DNA of 40,193 nucleotides from a virus (IMGVR_UViG_2671180415_000005), one strand, 5' to 3'; positions 319 through 37,603 are shown, counted from the first letter of the stretch. Made by a program: numbers and translations. Notes: generated by a model not told the origin, from the sequence alone.

Positions 319-1056
319 TCATTCACTCTCTTTCAAACCAGTTTTAACTGTTTGTGGTTTTGGGTAAGGCTGGACTTTGAATAGCTTTGTGTTAAGGCGT
401 TTTCTGGCTCTCTTGTCCAGAAACCGGATGTAACGAAACTGACGGAATTTATGAACACTGGCTCTGTCGATATTAGCCCGCAGATGTTCACCTCGCTGTC
501 CTCCTCGTTTGATTGCATTCTTGCAAATCTCGTGATACCACTCGCCATCAAGTTCATAGAATGTTGTTTCATGACTGCCTACATAATCAAAATTGCTTGC
601 CTGGTACACGACACCAAGACAGCCACAACGCTCATCTGCAAACGACTGAACCCACTGCACCTGCGGATAAAGTTGTCTGATTAGTTTGAGCGCGTAACTG
701 ATTGCCCTTGATTCGGAGTTTCTCGGCATACAGTCATGCAGCCATAACCGGTTAAGCTCCATATATTCGCGGTTCTGCGTGCCAGTTACGACGCGTGCAC
801 CATTGTTTGGATTAAGGGCATAACCCCATTGCATTACGCCAACCAGCTCCCGTTCTGAAAATATGCCCAGATGAAGGTAGGAATTATTTACGAAACGATG
901 GCTGTAATGTTTATTGACGACGACCAGCCGGGCCAGCCAGCAACTTATTGTCTCAACCCGTAACTCACGGGAGCCATAACCGACGATATTGTCGTTATAG
1001 TGAATAAGTTCAGGCGTGCTGATGATACGGGATGTAACTTGCTTTCTGTTCCCCAC
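319..1056 (-). CDS. mom: Mom-like DNA modification protein (start uncertain; candidate GTG at 1056, ORF is open up to 1251)
   Basis: Last gene before the prophage end, directly downstream of and overlapping a Com-like zinc-finger gene, as in Mu; AAGGAA 8 nt upstream of GTG; no direct sequence motif verified. Confidence 0.6.
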
Positions 1057-1210
1057 GACAGGATTTCCTTGTGTATGTGGGGTGCTCTGTGGCGCTCTGA
1101 GATGTGATTTGATTGAGGGTTTTACAGCGCGGACATTTAACTTCCAGATAACTGAAGCTGGCTCGTGCCAGTAGCTTGTTACAATGTCGGCACCGTATGT
1201 TTCGATACAT
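1010..1210 (-). CDS. com: Com-like zinc-finger translational activator of mom
   Basis: [34 protein letters not shown]... has the C-x2-C ... C-x2-C Com pattern (IRC.HCNKLL ... KCPRCK); overlaps mom 5' end; alternative upstream start at 1255. Confidence 0.8.
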
Positions 1211-1254
1211 GGCCGCATAACCTCCTGCTTTGTTGTTGATATCTTTATCACTCA

Positions 1255-1350
1255 ATCGATCGACAAAAACGATCGATTTGATTTATTTAATTGATACAAC
1301 AAATAACACGAAATGTCATTAGCGAAAATTTATGAGTTTGATCACTAATT
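1255..1350 (-). promoter_or_regulatory. Candidate Pmom-like regulatory region with clustered Dam GATC sites
   Basis: AT-rich; GATC at 1258, 1271 and 1340 immediately upstream of com on the minus strand; Mu Pmom is regulated by a Dam-methylated GATC cluster. Confidence 0.4.
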
Positions 1351-1466
1351 TTAAACGGTGCTGTAACGCATAAGTGCTGAATGATTGTACATTTGAATAC
1401 CGCAAAGCAAACAAATCAACTAATTTATAGAAGTCAATTGGTTAATTGCCAGCGTAAGAGGCTGCT

Positions 1467-1760
1467 ATGGACAATCATGTAACGACGAGAAATCGAAAAA
1501 TGATTGAAAATGCGGAAATCTATAATGATTATTTTTCCGATTATTCAGATGCCTGCAAATACAGTTCGAGTGCGGGAGAGTTCATATGCTTCAACTTTTT
1601 TATTAAATCTTATGTTTTTCCTCCACAGCAAGAAGATGGAGGTGTGCCACCTCCTGAAATCACTTTGCACCGTATAGCCTCCGTCTCAATGATGGAGCAA
1701 CAGGCTAATGAGCTGTATAGCATTCTGGGAACGATTCTACAAAAGCGTGAATCGGACTAA
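1467..1760 (+). CDS. Hypothetical protein (AT-rich cargo ORF, opposite strand to neighbours)
   Basis: 97-aa ORF with TAAGAGG Shine-Dalgarno before ATG at 1467; no recognisable motif. Confidence 0.4.
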   Translation: MDNHVTTRNRKMIENAEIYNDYFSDYSDACKYSSSAGEFICFNFFIKSYVFPPQQEDGGVPPPEITLHRIASVSMMEQQANELYSILGTILQKRESD

Positions 1761-1927
1761 TGATACCGGTTCATTTGCCTGCCCGGATGGGGAAGCAGGA
1801 TTGACTGCTCCATAAGCAGCTATATTTCTGAATACGAAATACTATCCAGCGATTACATATGGCTGGATAGCGGCAAAGATGTTTTCATTAGTGTCAAACC
1901 GGCAGAGGACACCACCGGTTTGTATTG

Positions 1928-2182
1928 TTACATCATGGTACTGTCAGTTCCGGGCTGAGCCGGGTCTGGTTGCTCTGGCTGCGCGTCGGTTTTCGGCTCA
2001 TTATCAGCATCACTGGCCGCAACTGCTGGCCCAATAAGTTTTGCCAGCACTTCATCAACGTAAGTGTCGATTTGTGCCTCAAAATCCTTGCGGACCTGCG
2101 CTTTCAGCAACTTATTTACTTCACCGGAATACAGTGCCTGTTTTACCAGGTCTTCAGTGACGGTGCCTTTAATTTCTGGCAT
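1928..2182 (-). CDS. Hypothetical acidic protein (cargo)
   Basis: 84-aa ORF co-directional with and downstream of the esterase gene; stem-loop AACCGG/CCGGTT at 1897..1920 just after its stop. Confidence 0.45.
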   Translation of the reverse strand: MPEIKGTVTEDLVKQALYSGEVNKLLKAQVRKDFEAQIDTYVDEVLAKLIGPAVAASDADNEPKTDAQPEQPDPAQPGTDSTMM

Positions 2183-2217
2183 GTATATCCTCCTTATGCG
2201 GGAATAAAGCCCTGCAA

Positions 2218-2412
2218 TCAGGGCTGGGTCGGGTCTTTTGGGAGCGGAGTTACCTGCGCTGTTTTACTGAGTTTTTCAGCTGCTGCGTCCTCAATTTTGC
2301 GGCGAACATAATTTCTGATGGCCTTATAACCACCACTCACCAGATATAACGCACATACTGCCGTGCAGAAATACAATAAAATAAGCTGTAAAAATGTCAT
2401 TATCCCTCCCAA
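2218..2412 (-). CDS. Small single-pass membrane protein (cargo)
   Basis: 64 aa; N-terminal hydrophobic stretch FLQLILLYFCTAVCALYLV then charged tail; GGGA Shine-Dalgarno-like sequence upstream. Confidence 0.5.
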   Translation of the reverse strand: MGGIMTFLQLILLYFCTAVCALYLVSGGYKAIRNYVRRKIEDAAAEKLSKTAQVTPLPKDPTQP

Positions 2413-2496
2413 TTATTGACATGGTGTTGACACCGGTAATATCTGTTAGGTAAAAAGGTGCACTGCATTTTTTGCTTTGGATATAACGATCTTTTT

Positions 2497-2539
2497 GCCG
2501 CCGGTTTCTTGTTTTCCCTTACCGGCGGCATTTTTTTAT
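2497..2539 (+). terminator. Intrinsic-terminator-like hairpin (plus-strand sense) between esterase and small membrane protein genes
   Basis: GCCGCCGGT (2497..2505) / ACCGGCGGC (2521..2529) stem followed by ATTTTTTTAT; two TTGACA hexamers at 2416 and 2427 lie upstream on the same strand. Confidence 0.45.
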
Positions 2540-2544
2540 CCTGC

Positions 2545-4599
2545 TTACGCGTTATTCACTTCCACCACGATACTGTCAATCAGTACCGGGTAAGTCGCAT
2601 TTTTAGTGATATCGGTCACGCGCAACTTGTCTGCCGTAAACGTGCCGACCGGAGACTGCGACAGCATGAATGGTGTCCCGTCCTTACCATCAATGACCGG
2701 CGTCACCTCAATACTGTTGTTACCGGCAAAACGGAAGCCCAGCGTATGCCATTCGTTATTAAATGCGCCGAATGACCCCAGCTTCGTGTTCTGCGCCGTG
2801 TTTCCTTTGTGATACATCACGTTAAGGTCTGTGGCATCGCTCTGTACGTAGAACGATGCCAGCAGGTTATGACCGGCATTTCCTTCCAGAGTAACCCCTT
2901 GCGGCAGGGCAGAAACCGGCCAGTACAGCGCCAGTGCGTACTGATTAGCCGTAAGCGCGCCATCGAGTTTAAAACGACAACTGACAAGACCACCTTTACC
3001 CAGCAGGTCCGCACCATTACCAGCATCATGCTCAAGGTACCAGGGGGCTCTTCCTGTTTCCTTGGTCAGTTTCATTGCCTTACCCCCGCTGGCTCCGGCA
3101 TCATCCACGATTTGAGCCTTGCCACCTCCGGCAGCCCAACCCTGTGGTGTCAACCGTCCTTCAGACTCAGATGCCCGGTAAGCAAATAGCGTACTCATCG
3201 TCGTGGTGTCTGCGGGTGGCGTGGACGGTTTTGATGGTGTATCAGGTGACGGCTTCTCATCCGGTGGTGTCACGGTCTGCCCGCGCATCAGTTCAGCCGT
3301 GCGCCCTGCATGGAGCATAATAGCTGAGGCCAGACGGTCTGAAATGACGCCCCTGCGTGCCCATGAGCTGAAATGGCTGTCACGCTGTGTCGAAACAAAA
3401 CTGCCCTGGGTTCGGGATGCTGCACCGTAATACCCGACAGCCACAATATCCGGGTCTTCCGCCGGAGCATTCGTTGGCGTGCTCTGTCCATTCTCATCCG
3501 TCAGGAACGGTACAAAGAAAATTTTCTGTGCTTCCTTGCCTTTGTAGCCACCGTATACTGCCTCATATTTATCGGTGCCAGCGTTTTTCCAGTAATACGT
3601 GGTATCACCGCAAATCCACGGCACCGTGGTGGCATTTCCACTCACGCACTGCGCAGCAAGCGGAGCCAGGTCAGTTCTGAACTGCTGAACCATGGCCGTG
3701 AATAAACTATTATGCTGCTGGCTTCCTGAGGCAAGGTCTGCCTCTCCCTGCATCCAGACCACAGCCAGAAGTTTGTTTTTCGGGTTTTTCGCCAGCGCGA
3801 CTTTGGTGCGGCTTACCAGGTCCTGATACAGAGGTTTACCGGCCCCCCAGCGTGAAGAATCAGCGGAAGCACCGCTGGCCTCACTGAATGAGCCGTCGGC
3901 TCCAGTGGTGAATGCTGACCCGCCACGACAACAGGGCACCAGAAGTATCCCGGCATTCTGTGGGATATAGGGAAGCAGTTTTTTGGCAATATGCAACCCC
4001 TGACCGACAGTCCCGTACTGGCCTTTTGCCAGATCAGCTTTCGGGTGGTTTATCCCGCTCATATCCTGAACATCATGCAGGCAGTGGTCTGCCGGAATGA
4101 TGTCGTTGTATGTACACGACGTACCGTTGGGCGTTACCGTACTGCGGCGTGCCAGTTGCTTAATGCGTGGGTCCGGGCGGTCAAACGAATCCGGTAACGG
4201 CAGCCCCTCGCCGTAGGCCATGCCATTTGACTGACCCGCGAGAATGACAACAAAGTAATATTCCGGCTCTGAACTGCTGCCATTCGTGCTACCGGAAGGC
4301 CCGGCGTTATCCGGTGCATTCCAGTCGGAGGGCGTGAGCGTTCCGGCCACGTCAGATGTGATTGGAATGATGCCAGTCACGCCTGAACTGGTGATTTCTG
4401 CACTGGGATTACCGGATACCGGCATTACCCATAATGGCTCTTTCGTGCTGAAGCGGATCACGCAGTCTGCGAAGGTGATCCCCCCTTTATTACCCGAAGG
4501 GCGGAAAGGGCTTTCAATAAATGCCACCGTGCCACCGGCAACCTTGACTGAAAACTCTCCGGGCATGGCGGAGAGCATTTTCCACTTGGAGTCTGACAT
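2545..4599 (-). CDS. SGNH/SASA-family carbohydrate esterase (sialate-O-acetylesterase-like) with Pro/Thr-rich linker and C-terminal beta-rich putative carbohydrate-binding domain; cargo gene
   Basis: 684 aa; motifs ILAGQSNGMAYGEG (GQSN serine motif), VVWMQGEAD and RDSHF (Asp/His) in SASA-like order; linker PPDEKPSPDTPSKPSTPPADTT; no signal peptide; Mu has no gene at this position between gin and com. Confidence 0.7.
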   Translation of the reverse strand: MSDSKWKMLSAMPGEFSVKVAGGTVAFIESPFRPSGNKGGITFADCVIRFSTKEPLWVMPVSGNPSAEITSSGVTGIIPITSDVAGTLTPSDWNAPDNAGPSGSTNGSSSEPEYYFVVILAGQSNGMAYGEGLPLPDSFDRPDPRIKQLARRSTVTPNGTSCTYNDIIPADHCLHDVQDMSGINHPKADLAKGQYGTVGQGLHIAKKLLPYIPQNAGILLVPCCRGGSAFTTGADGSFSEASGASADSSRWGAGKPLYQDLVSRTKVALAKNPKNKLLAVVWMQGEADLASGSQQHNSLFTAMVQQFRTDLAPLAAQCVSGNATTVPWICGDTTYYWKNAGTDKYEAVYGGYKGKEAQKIFFVPFLTDENGQSTPTNAPAEDPDIVAVGYYGAASRTQGSFVSTQRDSHFSSWARRGVISDRLASAIMLHAGRTAELMRGQTVTPPDEKPSPDTPSKPSTPPADTTTMSTLFAYRASESEGRLTPQGWAAGGGKAQIVDDAGASGGKAMKLTKETGRAPWYLEHDAGNGADLLGKGGLVSCRFKLDGALTANQYALALYWPVSALPQGVTLEGNAGHNLLASFYVQSDATDLNVMYHKGNTAQNTKLGSFGAFNNEWHTLGFRFAGNNSIEVTPVIDGKDGTPFMLSQSPVGTFTADKLRVTDITKNATYPVLIDSIVVEVNNA

Positions 4600-4674
4600 C
4601 GTCTTTTCTGCCTGTTTCTGAATTAAACAGAGTCAGAATAGCGACCGCTGAAAAATATGTGTTTTGCGGAAATT

Positions 4675-4704
4675 CAAAAAAGCGTCACGGTACTTTTGGT
4701 GACG
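4675..4704 (-). terminator. Intrinsic terminator after gin (minus-strand sense)
   Basis: Stem CGTCAC (4683..4688) / GTGACG (4699..4704) followed on the minus-strand RNA by CUUUUUUG; overlaps gin stop codon. Confidence 0.5.
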
Positions 4705-5257
4705 GAGCTGGTGAGGCAGGAAAATAACGATAAAGGGTGGAAAGGCCAATATCAAATATCAGTGCGATTTGTTTACGGGACTCGCCATTAGCCAGCAAAC
4801 GGGCGATTTGCTCCCGCTCTTTCTCTGTCAGTTTCTGAGGTCTGCCGCCATGACGCCCCTGAGCACGGGCAGCAGCAAGACCCGCGCGTGTACGTTCAAT
4901 AATGAGTTCCCGCTCCATTTCCGCCAGCGCGCCCATTATATGGAAAAAGAAACGTCCCATGGGAGTGGATGTATCAATATTGTCCGTAATGCTGCGGAAG
5001 TTAACGCCGCGTTGCCGGAGTTCTTCTGTTAAAAGGACAAGGTGCTGCATACTGCGTCCAAGGCGATCCAGTTTCCAGACCAGCAGGGTATCCCCTGGCC
5101 GGAGTCGCTTTAATGCGCGTTTAAGTCCGGGACGCTCCCTTGTCTTACCGCTTATTCTGTCTTCGAAAAACAGCTCACATCCTGCACATTCCAGCGCATT
5201 TCTTTGTAGCGCCGTATTCTGGTCATTTGTTGACACCCTGATATACCCAATCAGCAT
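4685..5257 (-). CDS. gin: Gin-family serine DNA invertase
   Basis: MLIGYIRVSTNDQNTALQRNA...DTLLVWKLDRLGRSMQHL...MGRFFFHIMGALAEMERELIIERT is near-identical in pattern to Mu Gin/Hin/Pin/Cin; adjacent to invertible tail-fiber segment. Confidence 0.95.
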   Translation of the reverse strand: MLIGYIRVSTNDQNTALQRNALECAGCELFFEDRISGKTRERPGLKRALKRLRPGDTLLVWKLDRLGRSMQHLVLLTEELRQRGVNFRSITDNIDTSTPMGRFFFHIMGALAEMERELIIERTRAGLAAARAQGRHGGRPQKLTEKEREQIARLLANGESRKQIALIFDIGLSTLYRYFPASPAPSPKVP

Positions 5258-35515: not shown

Positions 35516-37603
35516 TCAGGCCAGCGGATCACTTTCTTTTAATTTCGCTTCGAGCAGTTGCAATCCCCGCTGGAAATTACGCTCGTATTCTTCATCAGGT
35601 TCATCGTCAGCGACCGGTTGCTGAACGGTCACCGTATTACCCACAGGGCGGTATATGTTTTCCAGCCAGGGCTCCTGCGGCTTGTGCTCCAGCACGTTGA
35701 CAACCTCATCCTCGGCATCACGGATTTTTTCCTCTGCGCGTTTACGCATGCCTTTAAGGCGCTGCTGCTGTTTGTAGTATTCCGCGCTGACAGGGAAGGC
35801 TTCGCGTTTATTGCCGTCCCATACCGCCTCGCAAATCACGCTGCCATCCGGGCGGCGCACGGTAATTCGTTCGGCATCATGAATGTCATAGCTGATAAGT
35901 ACCTTACGGCCATGCTCGTCACGCAGCTCGGGCGCGTAGTAAATATTATTCAGCCAGCGTATTTCACAGCGTCTTACAGGGCGCTCCACCATCGGCCGGA
36001 ACATATCCCGCAGTTCAACATCGGACAGCCATTCAATTTCCGTGTCCTCTTCCGCCAGGCGTTTTTTTCTGAACTCCGCCGGGCTGTAATGTTTACCGTT
36101 CGGCTTCATGGGTAATTCATCGTGCGGCCGGTTGTTGTACCACTCAACACCGTCACGAATGGCATCAATCAGTTCAGACCAGGACGGTAAATCACGCATC
36201 GCTGACTGCTGCCGGGCGTTCAGCCGTTTGCCCTGTTGCAGGGCACTGAATGCCGAGCGTAAATCGCGGTTGGTTTTACGTAACGTCTCGCGATCTGCTC
36301 CTTTCCCGAAATAGGTGCGGTATTTACGGGCTATGCGCATCGGTAATGTGCGGTTAAGCCGTTCGATAATGCCCCGTCCCTGCGGATTACCGGCAATCCC
36401 TGTCGGGTGATTAATCCCCAGTCGTGGCAGTATCCCCACAATCTCCTTATCCAGGACGTCGGCGGTTTCCCCGGAGCCATTATCCGAGTAATACAGAAAC
36501 GGTTTGCCATGATGGCGAATACCGTGCTGTATGGCACCGGCTACGGCGAAAACATTTTCAGCCAGGTCAAGGCTCCAGCCCACCACAAAGCGCGTGCCAC
36601 CGTCGATAACAAAGGTCACTTCCGGTGCGAATGGCCGCCCGTGAACCGGGTGCGCGCATTTCAGCTTCATGCCGTGACCGTCACCAATCCAGACATAATT
36701 CACCGGCATTCTGGACCAGTCGCGGCGCGTGAATCCCTCAAGCTGACGGTATTCACTGCCAGTTACCCGGCCTTTTTGTTTCACCACTTCCGGCAGTTTC
36801 TTCATTGCGCGGCGAATGGTGTCATAAGAGGGCATGATATCGAGCATATAAGGCTCATCAGCGTGCCGGTGCTGCCATTCAGCAACAAAATCCTCGTAAG
36901 CCTCGGTCATTGGTCGGCCGTTTGACTGGCGATACTGCGCCAGAAATTCGGGCAGCCAGTTAATATCTTCGGCTTTTATTTCCTGGCGTTTACCCGGTGC
37001 CAGTAAAAGCAGGCGTTCAGCGGCGTTCTGTGCCTTGTTAAAGGCCGCAATCCAGCGTTTCAGCGTGATTTCACTCAACGCGCGGCTGTTTCCCTTTTTG
37101 GCGTTCGCCGTCTCAACCATTGCCACAATGCGCTCGTCCAGTTGTGATCGTGCCAGGCTGTTAACGAGGAACCGGATAGCTTTAGCGCAGCTGAAACCGG
37201 GTTGTTGCGTGAATTTCAGCACCTCACTGACGATCGCAATGCGTGCGTCTGCCACCTGGCGCTGGTTTTCAGTCAGGGCATTGAGGCGTTCGACCATCAG
37301 TTGTGGTGATCCGCGATATGCCTCCACCGCATCAACCACGGCAGACGAGCGTCTGGCCTTTGTCACCACCGGAGCCGGTGATTCATCGGCTTTTTGCGTC
37401 ATCAGTTGCAGGGCATAACGTTCGCGTAATGCCTGCTGTGTCACTTCAGGTAAACAGTCAATGCTGTATTCAAAACCTTTAGCGCCTTTCTTGCGGCGTC
37501 TGCTGGTTTCGCTGGTTGCATACTTCCTGATTGAATAGCGAACGCCTTGCTCCGTTCCCGGCATCCCCGGTAATCCAACCAGTTCTTTAACTGAAGCAAA
37601 CAT
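35516..37603 (-). CDS. A: Mu A-like DDE transposase
   Basis: 695 aa directly after ner-like gene; size and position of MuA; large central catalytic region. Confidence 0.9.
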   Translation of the reverse strand: MFASVKELVGLPGMPGTEQGVRYSIRKYATSETSRRRKKGAKGFEYSIDCLPEVTQQALRERYALQLMTQKADESPAPVVTKARRSSAVVDAVEAYRGSPQLMVERLNALTENQRQVADARIAIVSEVLKFTQQPGFSCAKAIRFLVNSLARSQLDERIVAMVETANAKKGNSRALSEITLKRWIAAFNKAQNAAERLLLLAPGKRQEIKAEDINWLPEFLAQYRQSNGRPMTEAYEDFVAEWQHRHADEPYMLDIMPSYDTIRRAMKKLPEVVKQKGRVTGSEYRQLEGFTRRDWSRMPVNYVWIGDGHGMKLKCAHPVHGRPFAPEVTFVIDGGTRFVVGWSLDLAENVFAVAGAIQHGIRHHGKPFLYYSDNGSGETADVLDKEIVGILPRLGINHPTGIAGNPQGRGIIERLNRTLPMRIARKYRTYFGKGADRETLRKTNRDLRSAFSALQQGKRLNARQQSAMRDLPSWSELIDAIRDGVEWYNNRPHDELPMKPNGKHYSPAEFRKKRLAEEDTEIEWLSDVELRDMFRPMVERPVRRCEIRWLNNIYYAPELRDEHGRKVLISYDIHDAERITVRRPDGSVICEAVWDGNKREAFPVSAEYYKQQQRLKGMRKRAEEKIRDAEDEVVNVLEHKPQEPWLENIYRPVGNTVTVQQPVADDEPDEEYERNFQRGLQLLEAKLKESDPLA

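Follow-up and report, generated by a model that had tools for sequence, protein, structure and literature searches.

What does a prophage related to phage Mu carry between its invertase gene gin and the com-mom genes, where Mu itself has little more than a promoter, and what would the products of this DNA do? The question is raised by a stretch of viral DNA of 40,193 nucleotides (IMGVR_UViG_2671180415_000005; hereafter the window, with coordinates counted from its first letter), a Mu-like prophage of Escherichia coli whose right end coincides with the start of the window and whose mom, com and gin genes all lie on the minus strand. In Mu, com starts at 35768, just past the end of gin at 35673, and Pmom (the mom promoter) is alone in the 94 bp between them, so that gin is directly followed by com-mom, as an initial annotation made from the sequence had stated; in the window, by contrast, gin (4685) and com (1210) are about 3.4 kb apart. 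The block is therefore extra DNA at that junction, an insertion relative to Mu as that annotation had held, and the distance is made up of a gene cassette and a hypervariable slot. The cassette is, with good probability, a three-gene nanS-p cassette (esterase, DUF1378 and DUF826 genes, closed by a terminal hairpin) that encodes a sialate O-acetylesterase and has become fixed in one lineage of Mu-like prophages, with gin on one side and the mom regulatory region on the other. This reading is based on homology, residue conservation, synteny, lineage distribution and purifying selection, while enzyme activity, substrates, late-gene induction and DUF1737 capsid docking are taken from the literature on homologues; the substrate of the window allele, its release route and the roles of its N-terminal domain, DUF1378 and DUF826 are what we infer. 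The open reading frames (ORFs), motifs and domain layout first described are present at their positions, and the cassette consists of the following elements:

2545..4599, minus strand: putative nanS-p-type sialate O-acetylesterase gene, 684 amino acids (ORF; Pfam, PHROGs and PDB matches)
2218..2400, minus strand: DUF1378 gene, 60 amino acids from an ATG at 2400 (the RefSeq start), or 2218..2412, 64 amino acids from a TTG at 2412 (PF07125, phrog_494)
1928..2182, minus strand: DUF826 gene, 84 amino acids (PF05696, phrog_311)
1895..1922, minus strand: stable hairpin right after the DUF826 stop, the 3' cassette boundary (-16.7 kcal/mol, z=-4.05, 0/200 shuffles as stable)

The 684-residue protein (72 kDa) appears in RefSeq as WP_001284083.1, labelled merely as a "DUF6645 domain-containing protein". 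Judged by its sequence, it is a clear member of the characterised NanS-p family. Pfam reports SASA (PF03629, 1.5e-13, above cutoff) and DUF6645 (7e-68), PHROGs reports phrog_143 (1.7e-296), and residues 110–428 align end to end (E=1.8e-117) with E. coli NanS, also known as YjhS (PDB 3PT5), a 9-O-acetyl-N-acetylneuraminate esterase, while residues 469–683 match the crystallised C-terminal domain of a phage NanS-p (PDB 6YP6, E=7e-98). By tblastn, homologues are found at about 65% identity in 349 phage records, overwhelmingly of Shiga toxin (Stx)-converting phages and including L0105 of phage 933W. When compared with this 933W NanS-p domain by domain, identity amounts to 70.6% in the catalytic domain and about 69% in the C-terminal domain; a second Mu-like allele is 69.4% identical in the catalytic domain, that is, as distant from the window protein as 933W is. 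Thus, the carbohydrate esterase of SASA/SGNH type first suspected here stands, and it belongs to a family already studied biochemically and structurally rather than to an uncharacterised one. Five segments can be distinguished in the protein:

4321..4599, minus strand: N-terminal domain, residues 1–93 with a folded core of about 1–80, replacing the DUF1737 of Stx-phage NanS-p
4264..4320, minus strand: linker 1, residues 94–112, low-complexity Ser/Gly/Pro, variable and gapped in alignments, with a low predicted local distance difference test (pLDDT) score
3304..4263, minus strand: catalytic SASA/SGNH domain, residues 113–432 (3PT5 match; family blocks)
3196..3303, minus strand: linker 2, residues 433–468, Pro/Thr/Ser-rich (sequence and alignment), the fastest-evolving segment, with a ratio of nonsynonymous to synonymous divergence (dN/dS) of 0.30
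2548..3195, minus strand: C-terminal lectin-like jelly-roll domain (DUF6645), residues 469–684, a putative carbohydrate-binding module (6YP6 match; aromatics)

The variant SGNH blocks of the NanS-p family are conserved, namely GQSN (residues 122–125, containing Ser124), CCRGGS (223–228), WMQGE (282–286, within WMQGEAD at 282–288) and RDSH (406–409, containing His409 and overlapping DSHF at 407–410). In this family, the His block reads RSSH or RASH (RxSH) rather than DxxH (PMC10462455). The position of the canonical DxxH Asp is held by Arg in the window protein, and the Asp of its DSHF is replaced by Ser or Ala in NanS and other NanS-p proteins; a Ser/Asp/His triad, as initially proposed, is therefore unsupported by the sequence and doubtful, and it is on the block comparison in PMC10462455 that the case for a catalytic dyad is based. 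The Pro/Thr-rich linker and the beta-rich C-terminal domain (about 215 residues) had been recognised correctly; the C-terminal domain of NanS-p is known to be a lectin-like jelly roll, and the four aromatic residues of its proposed sugar site (Y554, Y559, Y584 and F654) are conserved in the window protein; the domain as a whole is the most variable one between alleles, with identity down to 40%. The protein also lacks a hydrophobic signal-like core at its N-terminus, in agreement with the first reading, the maximum KD12 being 1.44 when judged by hydropathy alone, with no dedicated signal-peptide predictor.

The affiliation of the cassette with a particular phage lineage was followed in complete E. 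coli genomes and in IMG/VR, the latter being scanned in two ways, by the N-terminal domain, which gave 34 loci, and by Mom, which gave 80, with gene content scored by tblastn. The block is present at a query coverage of at least 80% in 27 of 5426 complete genomes, at least 99% identical in 22 of them and 100% identical in a dozen. Every locus found with the N-terminal domain is Mu-like and, where the contig is long enough, shows the order tail fibre, tfa, (gin), esterase, DUF1378, DUF826, variable slot, com and mom. All contigs whose Mom is at least 95% identical to that of the window carry the cassette wherever upstream sequence is available, whereas contigs with a Mom 77–82% identical (78% in Mu) never carry it, and gin, where present, lies there about 130 bp from com, close by as in Mu. 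The cassette is therefore fixed within its lineage and varies by allele, rather than being a presence/absence moron there, a point on which comparison with related prophages had been proposed as a check; neither is it common property of all Mu-like phages, given that Mu-type contigs never carry it. The alleles themselves differ widely: com and mom remain 94–100% identical while the esterase alleles are only 62–70% identical, which points to old divergence, to repeated exchange with lambdoid alleles, or to both. Between alleles with near-saturated dS, dN/dS amounts to 0.11 for the esterase (versus the allele of locus L003), 0.30 for DUF1378 and 0.16 for DUF826, so all three cassette genes are under purifying selection.

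Contact with lambdoid prophages is visible in hybrid loci. In L006 (1–5200) and L011 (1700–12700), a Mu-like gin/tfa-esterase segment is joined to a lambdoid series of DUF1378 (85–88% identical to 933W), DUF826, holin S and endolysin R. The reciprocal product is seen in L042 (4500–8740), which shares its IMG genome with L011: within its esterase gene, an N-terminus of the DUF1737 type passes into a Mu-like esterase C-terminus, followed by DUF1378, DUF826, orf97, com and mom. The junctions of all three loci lie inside or just after the esterase gene (window counterpart 1928–4599). It seems that Mu-like and lambdoid prophages recombine, or undergo inversion, through the cassette they share, with draft-assembly artefacts as a possible alternative source of such hybrids.

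Other rearrangements were observed around the cassette. In ten loci (L010, L011, L013, L015, L018, L023, L024, L025, L049 and L052), gin is deleted between tfa and the esterase gene, so that the invertible tail-fibre segment of these relatives would be frozen, while their esterase leader and cassette are intact; in the two that were aligned, L018 and L024, a remnant of about 90 bp of the gin 3' end is all that is left of the gene. In E. coli DLI.5a (L001; NZ_CP103972, 1239265–1249721), a Mu-like prophage in ypdB has decayed to about 10 kb, with gin frameshifted and most structural genes truncated or missing, and the segment mom-com-orf97-DUF826-DUF1378-esterase is 100% identical and intact, which could reflect either recent decay or retention at the host level. 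Finally, two P2-like (Peduoviridae) records, L110 (ON470599, 32434–33684) and L111 (PV468777, 1–1464), end inside a DUF1737-type nanS-p homologue just past the lysis genes; either these prophages also carry the gene, or their boundaries have been mis-called beside a lambdoid remnant. P2-like phages were accordingly set aside as a third phage context, both records being uninformative because they stop inside the esterase gene.

The part of the protein that sets it apart from its Stx-phage relatives is the N-terminal domain. No Pfam match to DUF1737 (PF08410) is found in the window protein, whose first 93 residues or so are 16% identical to the N-terminus of 933W NanS-p and 62% identical to that of the other Mu-like allele, and DUF1737-bearing relatives match only from about residue 100 on. 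An exhaustive HMMER search of 1.84 billion representatives returned, apart from fragments of the same protein, a single further protein with 29% identity, which is itself an esterase N-terminus in which the domain is followed by a Pro/Thr linker and then by YYFVIPVAGQSN. A word-indexed homologue search with the domain returned only fragments of the same protein, and a scan of one-genome-per-species contigs gave no match; a Salmonella variant with 47% identity does exist. Across five variants, a conserved core can be recognised (W6, G14, GG22-23, F27, P34, LW56-57, V61, G63, P65, G73 and I78), followed by a variable low-complexity linker. While a single-sequence AlphaFold2 run was uninformative, the model obtained from a six-sequence alignment predicts a compact all-beta domain with a pLDDT of 75–84 over residues 1–72. 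The domain is under selection as well (dN 0.27, with dS saturated), is fused to this esterase in all finds, and occurs in a Mu-like context wherever this can be examined, in E. coli prophages and in viral contigs. By these sequence comparisons, it is a real, selectively maintained and previously undescribed domain of about 85 residues without known relatives.

How would such an enzyme act? Recombinant NanS-p enzymes cleave O-acetyl groups from 5-N-acetyl-9-O-acetylneuraminic acid (Neu5,9Ac2) and from mucin, and allow lysogens to grow on Neu5,9Ac2; nanS-p is induced by 1–2.4 log with mitomycin C, together with stx and late genes (PMC10462455). By analogy with the family, the window protein is likely a sialate O-acetylesterase of host 9-O-acetylated sialic acids. 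Its NanS-type SGNH domain, with Ser124 as the nucleophile and His409, would strip the O-acetyl group from 9-O-acetylated sialic acids, either as free Neu5,9Ac2 or on mucin O-glycans, while the lectin-like C-terminal domain would position and hold the enzyme on the glycan. Since there is no signal peptide, the enzyme would be made in the cytoplasm and reach its substrate only upon lysis of the cell of an induced prophage or as a component of the released particle. De-O-acetylation would open host sialic acid to sialidases and to the Nan catabolic pathway of E. coli, and may also aid the interaction of the particle with mucus or its passage through it. Of the alternatives that the initial annotation had listed as substrate (O-antigen, capsule or a sialylated structure), it is thus the last that fits the family, whose substrates are host 9-O-acetylated sialic acids and mucin O-glycans, and not the first two.

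A place on the virion is suggested by phage phi24B, in which, according to a 2026 preprint, the DUF1737 of NanS-p occupies the central hexons of the T=9 capsid in hexameric form, and both the lectin and the catalytic domain are subsequently cleaved off. Of the roles that may be considered for the N-terminal beta domain, which stands in the place of DUF1737, we would favour that of its equivalent, an adaptor docking the enzyme on the Mu-like virion, although we hold this tentatively and at somewhat less than even confidence. A bolder proposal, which must be called doubtful, is that NanS-p proteins are modular virion-decoration enzymes with exchangeable anchors, the domain of about 85 residues being a new anchor for Mu-like (myovirus) particles, and DUF1378 and DUF826 being dedicated accessory factors for membrane-associated handling, processing or loading.

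Several points weigh against the cassette reading or parts of it. The catalytic domain is 30% diverged from the enzymes that have been assayed, and the activity of the window allele is a prediction. Fold-library searches gave no significant match of the N-terminal domain to decoration or tail-attachment domains, nor does it resemble any other protein of the same phage, and the anchor role is therefore argued from position, by analogy. The precedent for capsid docking was set in a preprint that deals with a podovirus, whose capsid is of the T=9 type, and the linkers of the window protein contain no clear instance of the "SSP" motifs proposed as processing signals in phi24B. Moreover, no convincing promoter or C-protein box was found upstream of the esterase gene, and the intact cassette in the decayed remnant of E. 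coli DLI.5a fits a role in host benefit that needs no virion.

Among other explanations, the one given the most probability is that of a virion-borne, receptor-modifying esterase that would de-O-acetylate a bacterial surface glycan (O-acetylated O-antigen or the K1 polysialic acid capsule) for adsorption. Esterase tailspikes are known from G7C and Vi phages, a NanS-p homologue is physically on the virion in phi24B, and a review poses action on O-acetylated lipopolysaccharide as an open question; in addition, the gene directly follows the tail-fibre/gin region, the lectin-like domain is the most variable one, as would be expected of a specificity determinant, and residues 211–312 (and these only) give a weak, partial match to a PHROG "tail protein" (1.2e-6). 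However, the catalytic domain is about 65–70% identical to NanS and NanS-p enzymes with sialic-acid substrates, docking in phi24B occurs on the capsid and not on the tail, with the catalytic part being cleaved off, the architecture is not tailspike-like and the N-domain is unlike tail-attachment domains, and phages of the Mu type owe their host range to the invertible S/U fibres, also found in the window. Such a role is therefore regarded as improbable: from the initial idea of a virion-associated, receptor-modifying enzyme, virion association retains the precedent of phi24B, while the receptor as substrate is disfavoured by the host sialic acids documented for the family.

Even less probability is given to two further explanations. 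Under lysogenic conversion or superinfection exclusion, also raised at first, the enzyme and the small membrane protein would be expressed in the lysogen and alter its own envelope glycans, blocking incoming phages. Mu gin is constitutively expressed, and the position beside gin, with only a weak hairpin after it, could permit read-through in the lysogen; the co-encoded membrane protein and the survival of the cassette in a decayed prophage would agree with this. Nothing, however, supports a change of the cell's own surface by a cytoplasmic enzyme that has neither signal peptide nor membrane anchor, none of the four proteins gives a significant match to a PADLOC defence model, homologues are induced with late genes instead of being expressed in the lysogen, and the documented substrates of the family are sialic acids, which to our knowledge are absent from the surface of most E. 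coli. It would be just as improbable for the cassette to be a neutral passenger, persisting merely as a recombination hotspot shared with lambdoid prophages. The Mu-like/lambdoid junctions inside it, and the fact that Mu does without it, could be taken in this sense, but the cassette is present in every lineage member examined, its three ORFs are intact with dN/dS of 0.11–0.30 at near-saturated synonymous divergence, and its catalytic and sugar-binding residues are conserved.

In the nanS-p cassette as we read it, the esterase is accompanied by two small genes. The membrane protein (64 residues from the upstream start) matches DUF1378 (PF07125, 1.2e-31, 109.1 bits versus a cutoff of 25; phrog_494, 1.6e-32) and is small and basic (isoelectric point, pI, 9.3), with one strong transmembrane segment at residues 7–25 (KD19 2.27), a single-pass protein as first described. 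The 84-residue protein, correctly seen to be acidic (pI 4.24), matches DUF826 (PF05696, 6.4e-16, 58.7 bits versus a cutoff of 25; phrog_311, 4.9e-28). For DUF1378, homologues were recovered from 309 phage records, a set of phages much like that of NanS-p. DUF826 was recovered by tblastn only in Mu-like copies, its lambdoid homology being shown via Pfam and by pairwise comparison, in which it is 39% identical (E=5e-15) to a 933W counterpart hidden within the old "L0106" call. The order in 933W is L0105 (nanS-p), DUF1378, DUF826 and then holin S, and the order esterase-DUF1378-DUF826 also holds in the Mu-like loci that extend far enough; the two genes are thus no orphans. No holin or endolysin homologue lies beside the cassette in Mu-like phages, and lys of Mu lies mid-genome. 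The two genes have hence moved with the enzyme into a place where no lysis genes adjoin, which argues that they belong functionally with the esterase and not with a lysis cassette. A 2023 survey places both between nanS-p and S and assigns no function to either, and the literature searched offers no assignment beyond it. One may speculate that the pair of a basic membrane protein and an acidic soluble protein serves the handling, processing or release of a signal-less enzyme. A hairpin with a 7-bp stem (AGCCCTGATTGCAGGGCT) spans the DUF1378 stop codon (2208–2225), where the type-2 allele has a different sequence that is also able to pair (CCCCG...CGGGG), and may take part in the coupling of DUF1378 with DUF826 or in processing between the two.

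The surroundings of the cassette, from gin to mom, comprise the following features:

4685..5257, minus strand: gin (G-segment DNA invertase), the upstream flank (Resolvase and HTH_7 domains; phrog_125 DNA invertase; 74% identity to Mu Gin)
4600..4684, minus strand: leader between gin and the esterase gene, two blocks of which are kept from one allele type to another in a seven-locus alignment
1211..1894, no strand: hypervariable AT-rich slot from the cassette to com, holding orf97 and not part of the esterase module
1467..1760, plus strand: 97-residue ORF (orf97; in RefSeq, 86 residues from 1500)
319..1210, minus strand: com-mom, the downstream flank (com 1010–1210, mom 319–1056; Pfam Zn_ribbon_Com and Mom; RefSeq annotation)

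Alignment to Mu Pmom shows that the GATC-rich element of the Mu mom regulatory region is kept upstream of com (about 1254–1290) and not beside gin, which places the inserted DNA downstream of gin and ahead of the mom control region. A Pmom at the gin-esterase junction, which had been considered, was rejected on the same grounds, there being no Pmom-like sequence in the leader. The element is a palindrome, AATCGATCGACAAAAACGATCGATT, situated at 1254–1290 about 45 nt upstream of com, much nearer to it than in Mu; it aligns with the Dam-site cluster of the Mu region, folds as a hairpin with z about -3.2 to -3.7, and is not followed by a TTAT-N6-ATAA C-box. Downstream of com, locus L003 (9420–10472; also L028, L033 and L022, which likewise have com but no mom) has a 350-residue ORF instead of mom, which, judged by reading the sequence, looks like a C5 DNA cytosine methyltransferase; if true, a Com-controlled DNA-modification gene would have been swapped for a different modification enzyme.

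How the cassette is transcribed is less apparent than its boundaries. Two terminator-like hairpins had been taken as a sign of an independently transcribed block. The one after the cluster, first placed at 1897..1920, is real: it extends over 1895–1922 and recurs at the same post-DUF826 position in other Mu-like alleles (z -2.9 to -4.6), lacking a U-tract in the window copy; a U-tract follows in L008 and in 933W, the 933W fold being not significant against shuffles (z -1.4). The one after gin (4675–4704), with a 6-bp stem and U6, folds no better than shuffled sequence (z=-0.87), is not picked up by a terminator scan and is not conserved in other allele types. With this terminator weak and no convincing promoter found, independent transcription finds no backing. 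Scans for sigma-70 promoters and terminators gave matches no commoner than in shuffled sequence, and the single promoter-like site upstream of the esterase (4755–4727) was discarded because it is not conserved in loci with gin deleted. Equally, the only TTAT-N6-ATAA site in the 40-kb window, which would resemble a Mu C-protein late-promoter box (2194–2207, TTATGCGGGAATAA; in Mu Pmom, TTATGCCCCAATAA), lies between DUF1378 and DUF826; in 933W and the other alleles it is either disrupted or missing, and it is thus considered a chance match. The leader is retained in loci where gin is deleted down to its 3' remnant, according to the seven-locus alignment. Its two conserved blocks include an inverted repeat, CTGTTTAATTCAGAAACAG, at 4612–4630, immediately upstream of the ribosome-binding region and start codon of the esterase; the repeat recurs as CTGTTTATTCAGGAACAG in allele types with coding sequences of just 62% identity, and it might serve as an operator or, in the RNA, as a hairpin that controls translation. 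A LexA box at this position was rejected, the spacing being CTG-N13-CAG and not N10.

Between DUF826 and com, the content of the locus changes altogether. At least five alternative contents, of 463–933 bp and about 40% GC, occupy this interval among 43 loci, mostly with small opposite-strand ORFs, including a 64-residue zinc-ribbon-like ORF and the orf97 type. Around orf97, the AT-rich character first noticed is borne out by a GC content of 0.34–0.43. Of the three small genes initially called orphans, orf97 alone retains this status, with no family in Pfam, PHROGs, NCBIfam or PADLOC and with relatives only among E. coli and Shigella proteins (79–100% identity). It stays open in a copy 87% identical in nucleotides (L024), with dN/dS of 0.36, and is probably a real gene, sitting in a hypervariable moron slot of its own, apart from the esterase module.

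When the cassette is set beside known systems, the closest are the NanS-p enzymes of Stx and other lambdoid phages (933W L0105, or z1466; phi24B vb_24B_21, or gp84), with which the window protein shares its catalytic (about 70%) and C-terminal (about 69%) domains, the four aromatics, Pro-rich linkers, the absence of a signal peptide, carriage by a prophage, and the subsequent DUF1378, DUF826 and hairpin. It differs in having an unrelated beta domain of about 85 residues (16% identity) where they have DUF1737, in length (684 residues versus 636–657 in Stx phages), in its carrier, a Mu-like transposable myovirus instead of a lambdoid phage, and in its location between gin and com instead of between stx/Q and the lysis genes (shown for 933W). 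Chromosomal NanS (YjhS, 3PT5) corresponds to the catalytic domain end to end, with the same variant SGNH blocks, but is a single domain (a 337-residue chain in 3PT5), in contrast to the phage-encoded window protein with its extra N- and C-terminal domains and no signal peptide; chromosomal NanS is a member of the nan regulon and carries a signal for export. The beta region of Mu (gin-Pmom-com-mom) has the same flanking genes in the same order and orientation, and its GATC-rich element upstream of com is kept, the difference being 94 bp between gin and com in Mu versus about 3.4 kb in the window lineage. More remote are G7C gp63.1, the acetyl esterases of Vi phages and influenza C HEF, likewise virus-borne O-acetyl esterases of SGNH type, with 9-O-acetyl sialic acid as the substrate of HEF; they share only the general SGNH fold class, and no tail-attachment or trimerisation modules were detected in the window protein. 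Thus, the NanS-p module itself is known; what is new is the fixation of its cassette in a Mu-like lineage and the undescribed N-terminal domain replacing the capsid-binding DUF1737.

For annotation, the RefSeq "DUF6645 domain-containing" protein can be renamed as a NanS-p-type sialate O-acetylesterase. NanS-p enzymes have been discussed as accessories of Shiga-toxin phages that bear on fitness and virulence, and nearly all work on them has been done in a lambdoid context. That a Mu-like lineage has the same cassette as a fixed element shows the trait to be independent of Stx phages, and esterase, DUF1378 and DUF826 behave as a single transferable module. The affiliation of DUF1378 and DUF826, ambiguous in Stx phages, where both lie between nanS-p and the lysis genes, becomes clearer in the Mu-like cassette, which separates them from the latter. 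The shared cassette also bears on how prophages drive the rearrangement of E. coli genomes, since it forms a recombination bridge linking Mu-like prophages to lambdoid ones. The N-terminal domain represents a natural domain swap exactly where the capsid anchor of phi24B has been reported, and if the new domain does bind Mu-like particles, this would support the view that these enzymes act on the virion in mucus. If, furthermore, the reading of exchangeable anchors were true, the editing of mucus glycans by the virion would be a one-cassette trait across podo-, sipho- and myoviruses of E. coli.

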